From Escherichia coli (lineage in GTDB: Bacteria; Pseudomonadota; Gammaproteobacteria; Enterobacterales; Enterobacteriaceae), in the NCBI RefSeq assembly GCF_009931435.1, contig NZ_CP043414.1: 64,000 bases of DNA. One strand, given 5' to 3'. The first letter of the stretch is position 1. The number at the start of each line of letters is the position of its first letter. The translations under genes and the position numbers were made by a program. The notes below the pieces were generated by a model. The model made no database searches and was not told where the DNA came from. It saw nothing but the letters and a program-made list of their open reading frames with translations. Below are positions 30,813-37,654 of this stretch, piece by piece.

Positions 30813-31403
30813 GTGACATGGCAAAATGATTACAGCAGGGACTATGAGGTTAAAAACCATATGGAATATCAAAACCGTTCTGATAAATACATCTGGTCTC
30901 CCCATGACGCCTACTTCTATAAAGGACTCTCTGAACTGATTGTGGATATCGACAGATTAATTTATCTATCGCTGGAGAAAATTAGAAAAGATTTCGTGTT
31001 TATCAATCTCAATACGGATTCTTTAACTGAGTTTATAAACCGTGATAACGAATGGTTATCCGCGGTAAAGGGGAAACAAGTCGTATTGATTGCGGCCAGA
31101 AAGTCAGAAGCCTTAGCAAATTATTGGTATTACAACAGCAATATTAGGGGCGTGGTATACGCTGGGCTGAGTCGTGATATTAGAAACGAATTGGCCTATG
31201 TGATTAATGGCAGGTTTCTCAAAAAAGATATTAAGAAAGATAAAATCACGGACCGGGAAATGGAAATTATCCGCATGACGGCCCAGGGAATGCTGCCTAA
31301 ATCGATTGCCAGAATTGAAAATTGTAGTGTGAAGACAGTGTATACCCATCGGCGTAATGCTGAGGCCAAGCTGTACTCAAAAATATATAAGTTGGTTCCG
31401 TAA
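30813..31403 (+). CDS. ecpR: LuxR-family regulator EcpR (MatA)
   Basis: 196-aa ORF with C-terminal LuxR HTH, directly upstream of ecpA. Confidence 0.88.
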
Positions 31404-31477
31404 ACTCCAGGCAAGTTAGTTTTAAAAAATGACTCACAGGGACATCATGTCCTCAATTTAACTCGGGAAGAAAAGCA

Positions 31478-32065
31478 ATGAAAAAAAAGGTTCTGGCAAT
31501 AGCTCTGGTAACGGTGTTTACCGGCATGGGTGTGGCGCAGGCTGCTGACGTAACAGCTCAGGCTGTAGCGACATGGTCGGCAACAGCCAAAAAAGACACC
31601 ACCAGTAAACTGGTGGTGACGCCACTCGGTAGCCTGGCGTTCCAGTATGCCGAAGGCATTAAAGGCTTTAACTCACAGAAAGGTCTATTTGACGTGGCTA
31701 TTGAGGGTGACTCAACGGCTACCGCCTTTAAACTGACCTCACGTCTTATCACCAACACCTTAACCCAGTTGGATACCTCAGGTTCCACACTGAATGTGGG
31801 CGTGGATTATAACGGCGCGGCAGTCGAAAAAACTGGCGATACCGTGATGATCGATACCGCCAACGGCGTACTGGGCGGCAACCTTAGCCCGCTGGCTAAC
31901 GGTTACAATGCCAGCAATCGTACCACCGCACAGGATGGTTTCACCTTCTCCATCATCAGCGGTACCACCAATGGTACCACCGCAGTAACCGATTACAGCA
32001 CTCTACCGGAAGGCATCTGGAGCGGCGACGTTAGCGTACAGTTCGACGCGACCTGGACCAGTTAA
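31478..32065 (+). CDS. ecpA: E. coli common pilus major subunit EcpA (MatB)
   Basis: 195-aa ORF with signal peptide [22 protein letters not shown]. Confidence 0.93.
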
Positions 32066-35342: not shown

Positions 35343-36975
35343 CCTACTGATAGCGATGATAATCTTTGCGCTATTCTGGCCAGCAACCGCGCTCAGAGCT
35401 GCAGTGAGCAAAACAATCTGGACGGATGCACCGGCACGCGAGTTTGTGTTTGTCGAAAACAACTCAGACGACAACTTTTTCGTCACGCCTGGCGGGGCGC
35501 TGGATCCGCGCCTGACCGGTGCCAACCGCTGGACCGGTTTAAAATACACTGGCTCAGGAACCATCTATCAACAAAGCCTCGGCTACATTGATAACGGTTA
35601 CAACACCGGCCTTTATACCAACTGGAAGTTTGATATGTGGCTGGAAAATTCGCCGGTTTCATCTCCTTTAACTGGCTTGCGCTGCATCAACTGGTACGCA
35701 GGGTGTAATATGACCACCAGTCTTATCCTGCCGCAAACCACCGACGCCAGTGGATTTTATGGCGCGACGGTGACCAGCGGCGGCTCGAAGTGGATGCACG
35801 GCATGTTGTCAGACGCGTTTTACCAGTATCTGCAACAAATGCCCGTTGGCAGCAGCTTTACGATGACCATCAATGCCTGCCAAACCTCAGTGAACTATGA
35901 CGCCAGCAGCGGCGCGCGCTGTAAGGATCAGGCCTCCGGCAACTGGTATGTTCGCAACGTCACCCATACGAAAGCAGCAAATTTGCGGTTGATAAATACC
36001 CACTCGCTGGCGGAGGTATTTATCAACAGCGACGGAGTACCGACTCTGGGCGAAGGGAACGCCGACTGCCGGACGCAAACCATCGGCAGCCGTTCAGGAT
36101 TAAGTTGTAAGATGGTTAACTATACCCTGCAAACAAACGGGCTCAGCAACACCTCAATCCATATATTCCCGGCGATCGCCAACTCGTCGTTAGCCTCGGC
36201 CGTCGGGGCGTACGATATGCAGTTCAGTCTGAATGGTAGTTCATGGAAACCGGTGAGCAATACCGCTTATTACTACACCTTCAACGAGATGAAGAGCGCA
36301 GACTCGATCTATGTTTTCTTCTCGAGCAACTTCTTTAAGCAGATGGTGAACCTGGGGATCAGCGATATCAACACCAAAGATCTATTCAACTTTCGCTTTC
36401 AGAACACCACATCACCGGAGTCTGGCTGGTATGAATTTTCTACCTCCAACACGCTGATTATCAAACCCCGTGATTTCAGCATCAGTATTATCTCCGATGA
36501 ATATACTCAGACACCGTCGCGGGAGGGATATGTTGGCAGCGGCGAGTCGGCACTCGATTTCGGCTATATCGTAACCACCAGCGGTAAAACAGCTGCCGAC
36601 GAAGTGCTGATCAAGGTGACCGGACCCGCGCAGGTGATTGGCGGACGCTCCTATTGTGTCTTCAGCTCCGATGACGGTAAGGCGAAAGTACCGTTCCCGG
36701 CGACGCTTTCCTTTATTACCCGCAACGGAGCTACAAAAACCTACGATGCCGGGTGCGATGATAGCTGGCGGGATATGACCGATGCGCTGTGGCTAACCAC
36801 ACCGTGGACTGATATCTCTGGCGAAGTGGGGCAGATGGATAAGACCACTGTCAAATTTTCGATTCCAATGGATAACGCCATTTCGCTGCGTACGATAGAT
36901 GATAACGGCTGGTTTGGCGAAGTTAGCGCTTCAGGAGAGATTCATGTTCAGGCGACATGGCGTAACATTAACTAA
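35332..36975 (+). CDS. ecpD: ECP tip adhesin EcpD
   Basis: 547-aa ORF with signal peptide; start overlaps the ecpC stop. Confidence 0.9.
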
Positions 36976-37654
36976 GGCCCTGCTGACAGTGGTCTGTATG
37001 CTGGCGACACCTTTGACACAGGCGATTTCGGTCGGCAATCTGACTTTTTCACTGCCGTCCGAGACTGACTTTGTCAGCAAACGTGTAGTGAATAACAACA
37101 AAAGCGCGCGGATATACCGTATTGCCATCAGTGCCATCGATAGCCCAGGCAGCAGTGAATTGCGCACTCGACCGGTGGATGGTGAACTGCTTTTCGCTCC
37201 CCGCCAGCTGGCGTTGCAGGCTGGTGAGAGTGAGTATTTTAAATTTTACTATCATGGCCCCCAGGATAACCGCGAGCGCTACTACCGGGTCTCATTTCGC
37301 GAGGTCCCCACTCGCAACCAGACAAGACGCAGCCCAACCGGCGGCGAGGTCAGCACTGAGCCGGTGGTGGTGATGGATACCATTCTGGTAGTACGACCTC
37401 GTCAGGTTCAGTTTAAATGGTCCTTCGACCAGGTGACAGGAACGGTAAGTAACACCGGCAACACGTGGTTTAAGCTACTGATTAAACCAGGATGTGATTC
37501 GACCGAAGAGGAAGGCGACGCCTGGTATCTACGTCCGGGAGACGTAGTTCATCAGCCTGAGTTACGTCAGCCGGGGAATCATTATCTGGTCTATAACGAC
37601 AAATTCATTAAGATTAGCGATTCCTGTCCTGCTAAGCCCCCTTCGGCGGACTAA
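36944..37654 (+). CDS. ecpE: ECP chaperone EcpE
   Basis: Track ORF 36899..37654; likely start at MFRRHGVTL (236 aa); shares motifs with EcpB (RYYR, VVRPRQ). Confidence 0.88.

Follow-up and report, generated by a model that had tools for sequence, protein, structure and literature searches.

We identify the segment at 30813-37654 (+) of a 64-kb stretch of Escherichia coli DNA (contig NZ_CP043414.1; the whole stretch is called the window below), with high confidence on sequence evidence, as the ecpRABCDE (matABCDEF) operon for the common pilus of E. coli (ECP), or Mat fimbria. Its last three genes overlap one another, and comparison with orthologous loci indicates that the two overlaps, ecpC/ecpD and ecpD/ecpE, are a conserved feature of the Enterobacterales, no accident of annotation and beyond chance open reading frame (ORF) geometry. 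The ORF map gives six consecutive ORFs on the same strand, encoding a regulator, a major pilin, a chaperone, an usher, a tip adhesin and a second chaperone:

30861..31403 (+): ecpR (matA), LuxR/GerE-type activator, likely of 180 aa; Pfam GerE, E = 1.2e-10
31478..32065 (+): ecpA (matB), major pilin; Pfam MatB, E = 1.7e-98, score 327.8 versus a cut-off of 27; PDB 3QS2, E = 1.8e-106
32123..32791 (+): ecpB (matC), periplasmic chaperone; Pfam EcpB_C, E = 4.5e-28; PDB 5DFK, E = 1.4e-130
32817..35342 (+): ecpC, outer-membrane usher; Pfam CooC_C and TcfC; annotated as EcpC
35332..36975 (+): ecpD, large tip adhesin/pilin of 547 aa; NCBIfam EcpD equivalog
36944..37654 (+): ecpE, second chaperone of 236 aa, EcpB paralogue; annotated as EcpE

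A preliminary description, made from the letters of the window, had placed the ecpRABCDE operon at 30813-37654. The six ORFs are as claimed there, the gene ends agree with RefSeq and with E. coli K-12, and alignment with annotated ecp/mat operons returned the same genes, order and ends in the records of the Prokaryotic Genome Annotation Pipeline (PGAP) and of K-12. The non-overlapping junctions have gaps of 74 nt (ecpR-ecpA), 57 nt (ecpA-ecpB) and 25 nt (ecpB-ecpC). EcpR, EcpA and EcpD pass the NCBIfam equivalog cut-offs (335 versus 300, 315.6 versus 200 and 1015.4 versus 900, respectively). EcpB and EcpE have no NCBIfam equivalog match at E ≤ 1e-5 and EcpC has only a sub-threshold TcfC match; these three are named from Pfam (EcpB_C, CooC_C/TcfC), PDB entry 5DFK and 98-100% identity to RefSeq-named proteins. 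EcpD has neither a Pfam family nor a solved homologue detectable by sequence search, and its similarity to EcpA is not significant, the two proteins having in common only a C-terminal SG[DE]..VQ..ATW strand motif.

A megablast search with the 6.8-kb operon as query matched 5013 of 5426 complete E. coli genomes at 95-99% identity, and at least 80% of the query was covered in 4936 of them (~91% of the 5426). The closest RefSeq records are 99.0% identical, and the same genes and neighbours are found there and in K-12 MG1655; the conserved context consists of ykgR, ykgM, ykgO and ykgL upstream and ykgJ, yagU and paoABC downstream. Nothing was found at variance with the ecp/mat assignment. Among commensal and pathogenic E. 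coli, and in Klebsiella, ECP/Mat fimbriae are a widespread factor in adhesion and biofilm formation, and the operon structure, the two chaperones and control by H-NS, EcpR, IHF and RcsB are already annotated and published. ECP is a member of the alternative chaperone-usher pathway (PMC4461329).

Gene overlaps at the ecpC/ecpD and ecpD/ecpE junctions

The ecpC/ecpD junction at 35322-35342 (+) reads caGGAGaagagaATGagagtTAA. The ecpD ATG occupies 35332-35334 and the ecpC TAA 35340-35342, which is an overlap of 11 nt with the stop codon counted, and a Shine-Dalgarno (SD) sequence, GGAG, lies at 35322-35325, 6 nt before the ATG. The ecpD/ecpE junction at 36933-36975 (+) reads tcAGGAGagattcATGttcaggcgacatggcgtaacattaacTAA; there the ecpE ATG at 36944-36946 and the ecpD TAA at 36973-36975 produce an overlap of 32 nt, with the SD AGGAG at 36933-36937, again 6 nt before the start codon. 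The preliminary description had put the ecpD start 11 nt before the end of ecpC and the ecpE start about 30 nt inside the 3′ end of ecpD. Both positions are read in the sequence, the second as 32 nt, and both overlaps are kept across genera. PGAP and K-12 annotate identical ecpD and ecpE starts, and the K-12 overlaps are also 11 and 32 nt.

Orthologous loci were fetched with an EcpC query, which yielded 27 loci with 50-92% EcpC identity from Klebsiella, Raoultella, Enterobacter, Pantoea, Citrobacter, Cedecea, Pluralibacter, Kosakonia, Tatumella, Phaseolibacter and Phytobacter. The junction comparison comprised the window and 24 orthologous loci, representing more than 12 genera and extending down to 50% protein identity. 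Of the 24 other loci, 21 have an ecpD ATG at -11 relative to the ecpC end, preceded by a purine-rich SD, and the ATG is at -14 in Tatumella and Phaseolibacter (2/24). The sole exception is Phytobacter (locus L028), where a stop in the ecpD frame directly follows the -11 ATG. The ecpE start is inside ecpD in all compared loci, and in none of them did we find a conserved ecpE start 3′ of the ecpD stop. It stands at -32 in most genera, among them Escherichia, Klebsiella, Raoultella ornithinolytica/planticola, Pantoea, Pluralibacter, Tatumella and Phytobacter, and apparently at -11 in seven loci. In six of the seven, L017, L018, L021, L024, L026 and L027, the -32 codon is lost or a stop directly follows it, and there is an in-frame ATG at -11; L015 has a GTG at -32 plus an ATG at -11 (the junction lies at about 11100-11165 in each of these loci and in L015). 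The overlaps are genuine rather than annotation noise, because overlapping ATGs and SDs recur across genera and the overlaps are conserved across the Enterobacterales. Conservation of third codon positions gives modest support for dual constraint at both junctions, being 0.71 in the last 10 codons of ecpC, versus 0.42-0.61, and 0.68 in the last 10 codons of ecpD, versus 0.40-0.68.

If the overlaps were artefacts of annotation, the true starts would be ATG 35356 (M9) for ecpD and GTG 36989 or ATG 36998 for ecpE, an explanation that we consider very improbable. Downstream in-frame start codons do exist for both genes; these lack conservation, and in several loci no further start occurs within 60 nt, whereas the ecpD ATG with its SD recurs at -11 in 21 of 24 loci and at -14 in two more. 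Translation of ecpD from M9 would leave a signal peptide that has no charged n-region, and an ecpE start at 36989 or 36998 would leave just ~9-12 residues ahead of the TQA|ISVG cleavage motif. By tblastn, EcpE homology starts 5′ of the ecpD stop in almost every locus. Two points weigh against the overlapping starts as annotated: cleavage of the signal peptides removes the N-termini of EcpD and EcpE from view, and the alignment of the NCBIfam EcpD model (538 positions) with the 547-aa protein begins no earlier than residue 11, so that the model itself gives the -11 ATG no support. A separate candidate, the ecpE start at ATG 36899 that a mechanical ORF call produces (77-nt overlap), was set aside because it lacks an SD and stops close its frame in Klebsiella, Raoultella and Cedecea.

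At both junctions the downstream start lies within the upstream ORF, an SD stands at functional spacing and the arrangement is conserved, and from this geometry it is reasonable to infer that the overlaps mediate translational coupling. Because the ecpD and ecpE starts lie 11 and 32 nt inside the preceding gene with strong embedded SDs, ribosomes would be well placed to re-initiate. A bolder proposal, to which we give less than even weight, is that the ecpD-ecpE junction is a conserved coupling device whose start codon has moved in evolution and which, together with the hairpin after ecpA described below, would form an undescribed post-transcriptional layer of stoichiometry control. Under this proposal the -32 ATG may serve Escherichia, Klebsiella, Raoultella, Pantoea and Tatumella, and the -11 ATG apparently plays this part in Cedecea, Kosakonia, Phaseolibacter, some Enterobacter and Raoultella terrigena. 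Were it true, an overlap that is never lost would hold the giant tip subunit EcpD and its dedicated chaperone EcpE in a fixed ratio.

The ecpR start codon and the upstream region

The left boundary in the preliminary description, GTG 30813 as the start of ecpR, is probably wrong. This GTG gives the 196-aa EcpR of K-12 style, and ATG 30861, 48 nt downstream, gives the 180-aa protein annotated by PGAP; PGAP and the comparative data favor the ATG, which we regard as the probable start. In four Klebsiella species there is an in-frame stop between the equivalent of the GTG and the conserved ATG, and in a divergent Escherichia (L020) the GTG is replaced by GTA, followed by two stops. In an eight-sequence alignment ATG 30861 is invariant, as is the purine-rich GAGG/GGGG 11 nt upstream of it. 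EcpR orthologues of Klebsiella and Pantoea are exactly 180 aa, which is also the length in positions of the NCBIfam EcpR equivalog model. We consider it unlikely, yet far from negligible, that the first coding sequence of the operon begins at GTG 30813 and encodes 196 aa: matA is 591 nt long in the K-12 annotation, no stop interrupts the frame from 30792 onward in the window or in strain 2020CK-00188 (L001), and a published distance to the transcription start site (TSS), considered below, fits the best and most conserved promoter candidate only from this GTG. Against that start stand the Klebsiella stops, the GTA and two stops of L020, the invariant ATG with its purine-rich motif, the 180-aa orthologues and the use of the ATG by PGAP and the 180-position model. 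With ATG 30861 as the preferred start, the K-12 record, which begins ecpR at the GTG (196 aa), probably places it 48 nt too far upstream.

The following features were assigned upstream of ecpR:

30296..30812 (no strand): AT-rich tract, ~29% GC; ecp regulatory region, likely an H-NS-bound segment as predicted from composition
30472..30486 (+): RcsAB-like box, quasi-palindromic TAAGACTATTCCTAA, agreeing with 13 of 14 positions of the consensus TaAGaa|tatTCctA
30480..30506 (+): TTCCT-N17-TTCCT pair, its first TTCCT overlapped by the RcsAB-like box, its second at 30502-30506
30654..30683 (+): promoter candidate P1, sigma-70 type, TTGACA, 18-nt spacer, TAAATT; 10/12, the best consensus match in the region
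30703..30731 (+): promoter candidate P2, TTAAAA, 17-nt spacer, TATATT; 9/12, weaker and Escherichia-specific

GC content is 28.8% over 30300-30812, versus a mean of 49.8% for the 64-kb window. The block 30296-30795 ties as the GC-poorest 500-nt block of the window, and just 0.03% of the window's 500-nt blocks are as GC-poor as 30300-30812. Low GC extends into ecpR (39.6%, versus 53.9% for ecpA-ecpE). The segment 29774-30299 has a GC content of 43.9%, with one 300-nt block reaching 51%. A 1-kb AT-rich region at 29774-30812, described previously as a typical H-NS-silenced promoter region, therefore stands for its proximal ~500 bp (29% GC) and fails for its distal half (43.9% GC), which holds ykgL. 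The reading of the AT-rich tract as an H-NS-silenced promoter agrees with the literature, and its low GC content is found in the proximal half only. Reviews and citing papers state that H-NS represses ecp/mat in E. coli and K. pneumoniae, for which H-NS binding and derepression in an hns mutant are reported, and that EcpR, IHF and MatA-RcsB activate it. In the distal part, ykgL at 29808-30035 (-) is an intact 75-aa ORF here, while the closest RefSeq records mark it as frameshifted; neither ykgL nor a small ORF at 30149-30334, within the 51%-GC block, has a Pfam family.

The predicted start of P1, at ~30690-30692, is 121 nt upstream of GTG 30813. In the eight-sequence alignment the P1 -35 element TTGACAC is invariant and the -10 element is conserved in Klebsiella and Pantoea; P2 is conserved in neither. 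A later paper, citing Martinez-Santos 2012, places the ecp promoter 121 bp upstream of the first ecpR codon. Counted from GTG 30813, this distance gives a TSS at ~30692, which fits P1, and counted from ATG 30861 a TSS at ~30740, which fits P2.

The sequence TAAGACTATTCCTAA is likely the EcpR(MatA)-RcsB operator half. Measured against the RcsAB-box consensus (PMC3950696), it is the sole exact pattern match in the window, with 0.13 matches expected within one mismatch. None of its core bases varies among Escherichia, Klebsiella and Pantoea in the eight-sequence alignment, and it lies ~170-220 bp upstream of P1. The second TTCCT box is kept as TCCT in 8/8 aligned sequences. The pair at 30480-30506 probably corresponds to the two EcpR-binding TTCCT boxes reported by Martinez-Santos 2012. 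The bare TTCCT-N10-25-TTCCT pattern is not significant in itself (4 found versus 1.35 expected); one look-alike, at 14052, was discarded and sits in the rclR coding sequence. Three points count against this account of the upstream region. The 121-bp distance fits P1 or P2 depending on the ecpR start codon from which it is counted. No site matching the canonical IHF consensus WATCAANNNNTTR was found in 29600-30900, and the three WATCAANNNNTTR sites in other parts of the window are what chance would give. Finally, binding of H-NS, IHF and EcpR at ecp is second-hand, through reviews and citing papers.

The regulator itself differs among relatives. Among the loci compared, those with an EcpR orthologue ahead of ecpA come only from Escherichia, the K. 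oxytoca group, K. indica, K. spallanzanii and one Pantoea. In Raoultella and several Enterobacter the EcpR position is taken by a 23%-identical GerE/LuxR-type protein, accompanied by a divergently transcribed Trans_reg_C (OmpR/CadC-like) regulator (loci L010, L011, L012, L015, L017, L021 and L022, at about 3600-5560 in each), and no regulator gene is adjacent in Cedecea, Kosakonia, Tatumella, Phaseolibacter and Phytobacter. Since the EcpR orthologue is restricted, replaced or absent according to genus, ecpABCDE is the conserved unit and the AT-rich regulator module is lineage-specific.

The chaperone pair and the hairpin after ecpA

EcpB and EcpE are 31% identical over 199 aa (BLASTP, E = 2e-26), and the aligned part includes the signal-peptide cleavage region, which supports the view that they are paralogues derived by gene duplication. 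The internal duplication suggested in the preliminary description from shared motifs is thus borne out by the alignment and by the solved structures: the sole match to EcpE at E ≤ 1 is EcpB (E = 1.7e-20), and the next-nearest solved chaperones to EcpB, of the CfaA type, score E ~ 0.003-0.01, at least 17 orders of magnitude weaker. Both genes are found in complete orthologous operons from more than 12 genera. Because all complete orthologous operons contain both, the duplication predates the spread of the operon through the Enterobacterales. The likeness could instead reflect a shared PapD-like fold only, with EcpE recruited separately. In Pfam, EcpE has a weak sub-threshold PapD_N match and no EcpB_C, and EcpB has EcpB_C and no PapD_N, which speaks for separate recruitment. 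We give that explanation almost no credence, in view of the pairwise E-value over 199 residues that include the cleavage region, the exclusive match of EcpE to EcpB in the PDB when EcpB and the CfaA type reach just E ~ 0.003-0.01, and the presence of both genes in operons of so many genera. Paralogy by duplication is the supported reading. The ~30% identity of EcpB and EcpE and the unusual two-chaperone arrangement have already been published (PMC4461329), and in the literature EcpE is proposed to be dedicated to the very large EcpD.

The spacer between ecpA and ecpB contains one further feature:

32081..32108 (+): ecpA-ecpB spacer hairpin, GC-rich 8-bp stem AGCAGGGG...CCCCTGCT (32081-32101) followed by TTTATTC; terminator-like scan match

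The folding energy of the hairpin is -20.6 kcal/mol (z = -2.5), and 23 of 24 other loci have an equivalent hairpin that ends in a T-rich tail. Its loop is variable and its stem largely invariant, with a few compensatory changes. By analogy with classical pilus operons, the hairpin probably acts as a partial terminator or as a stabilizer of the mRNA 3′ end, favoring the pilin over the assembly genes; as a counterweight, covariation support is thin because the stem is mostly invariant. No paper or experiment on an ecp hairpin was found in the literature searched. Folding of the 5′ untranslated region (UTR), the ecpR-ecpA spacer and the post-ecpE region did not exceed that of shuffled controls (z = -0.2, +0.7 and +1.6, respectively), an Rfam scan of the operon and 5′ UTR returned no known RNA family within 30300-37700, and no intrinsic terminator was found after ecpE. 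The conserved hairpin and the RcsAB-like box would be cheap targets for studies of ECP expression. As an observation on this spacer in a relative, Klebsiella indica (L006, 6048-6306) has an ecpA-ecpB spacer of 256 nt, versus ~58 nt, with a ~200-nt insertion that carries a second copy of the hairpin.

Allelic variation, proposed expression and comparison with known systems

The ykgL-ecpR intergenic allele of the window (29600-30870) is rare, being matched at 99% or above in only 2 of ~5076 E. coli records, with 5056 at 90-95%; it is 87-94% identical to K-12. Over the operon coding sequence, identity to E. coli records is 95-99%, and in the pao flank it reaches 99.6%. The rare intergenic allele fits published phylogroup differences in mat regulation. 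Relative to its best match the window is a mosaic, identical over 30400-33700 and then 97-98% identical over 33800-34900. Plasmid-labelled records account for 13 of 5023 matching places in E. coli genomes. Directly downstream of yagU, between yagU and ykgJ, Rfam IS009 is matched over its full length at 38340-38540 (-), with 196 bits versus a gathering score of 117. Some loci of relatives are irregular: ecpD and ecpE of Citrobacter amalonaticus (L014) and ecpC of Phytobacter massiliensis (L028) gave only partial tblastn matches, and these operons may be decaying or frameshifted. A 254-bp contig of a Nocardioides malaquae assembly (L029) is 99% identical to residues 701-784 of E. coli EcpC and almost certainly reflects E. 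coli DNA contaminating this actinobacterial assembly.

The features above suggest the following order of events in expression of the operon. Transcription would most likely start at a sigma-70 promoter within the ~500-bp, 29%-GC tract upstream of ecpR. In the roles that the literature assigns to them, H-NS would silence this tract, and EcpR with RcsB at the conserved RcsAB-like box, plus IHF, would counter the silencing. The transcript would encode the EcpR regulator, the EcpA major pilin, the EcpB chaperone, the EcpC usher, the 57-kDa EcpD tip adhesin and the second chaperone EcpE, an ancient paralogue of EcpB dedicated to EcpD according to the literature. The hairpin and T tract after ecpA would probably shift output toward pilin relative to the assembly proteins. 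On completing ecpC or ecpD, ribosomes would be well placed to re-initiate at ecpD or ecpE, and the resulting translational coupling would tie together the amounts of usher, tip subunit and tip chaperone.

The K-12 operon (ecpRABCDE/matABCDEF, b0294-b0289; also in enterohaemorrhagic, enteropathogenic and neonatal meningitis E. coli) is like that of the window in its six genes, their order, the neighbours and the 11- and 32-nt overlaps, with coding identity of 96-100%. Among alpha-class pili, the ECP usher resembles those of CFA/I (CfaABCE), CS1 (CooBACD) and Tcf in its CooC_C and TcfC domains, and the CFA/I chaperone CfaA has distant similarity to EcpB. Unlike these systems, which have a single chaperone, ECP employs two; it also differs in encoding a LuxR-type regulator of its own in the first gene, and in a 57-kDa tip subunit able to self-polymerise (PMC4461329).

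Classical chaperone-usher operons such as those of papA and fimA possess an intra-operon hairpin after the major pilin gene. As in ecp, this is a GC-rich hairpin with a T-rich tail directly 3′ of the major subunit gene and ahead of the assembly genes; compared with them, the ecp T tract is weak in E. coli (TTTATTC). Promoters controlled by RcsB with an auxiliary regulator (rcsA/cps; bgl and leuO with BglJ-RcsB) have in common with ecp an AT-rich, H-NS-repressed promoter, an RcsAB-like box and an auxiliary regulator of LuxR/GerE type. In ecp, by contrast, the auxiliary regulator is the first gene of the operon that it activates, which is positive autoregulation, and the box, instead of adjoining the promoter, is situated ~170-220 bp upstream of it.

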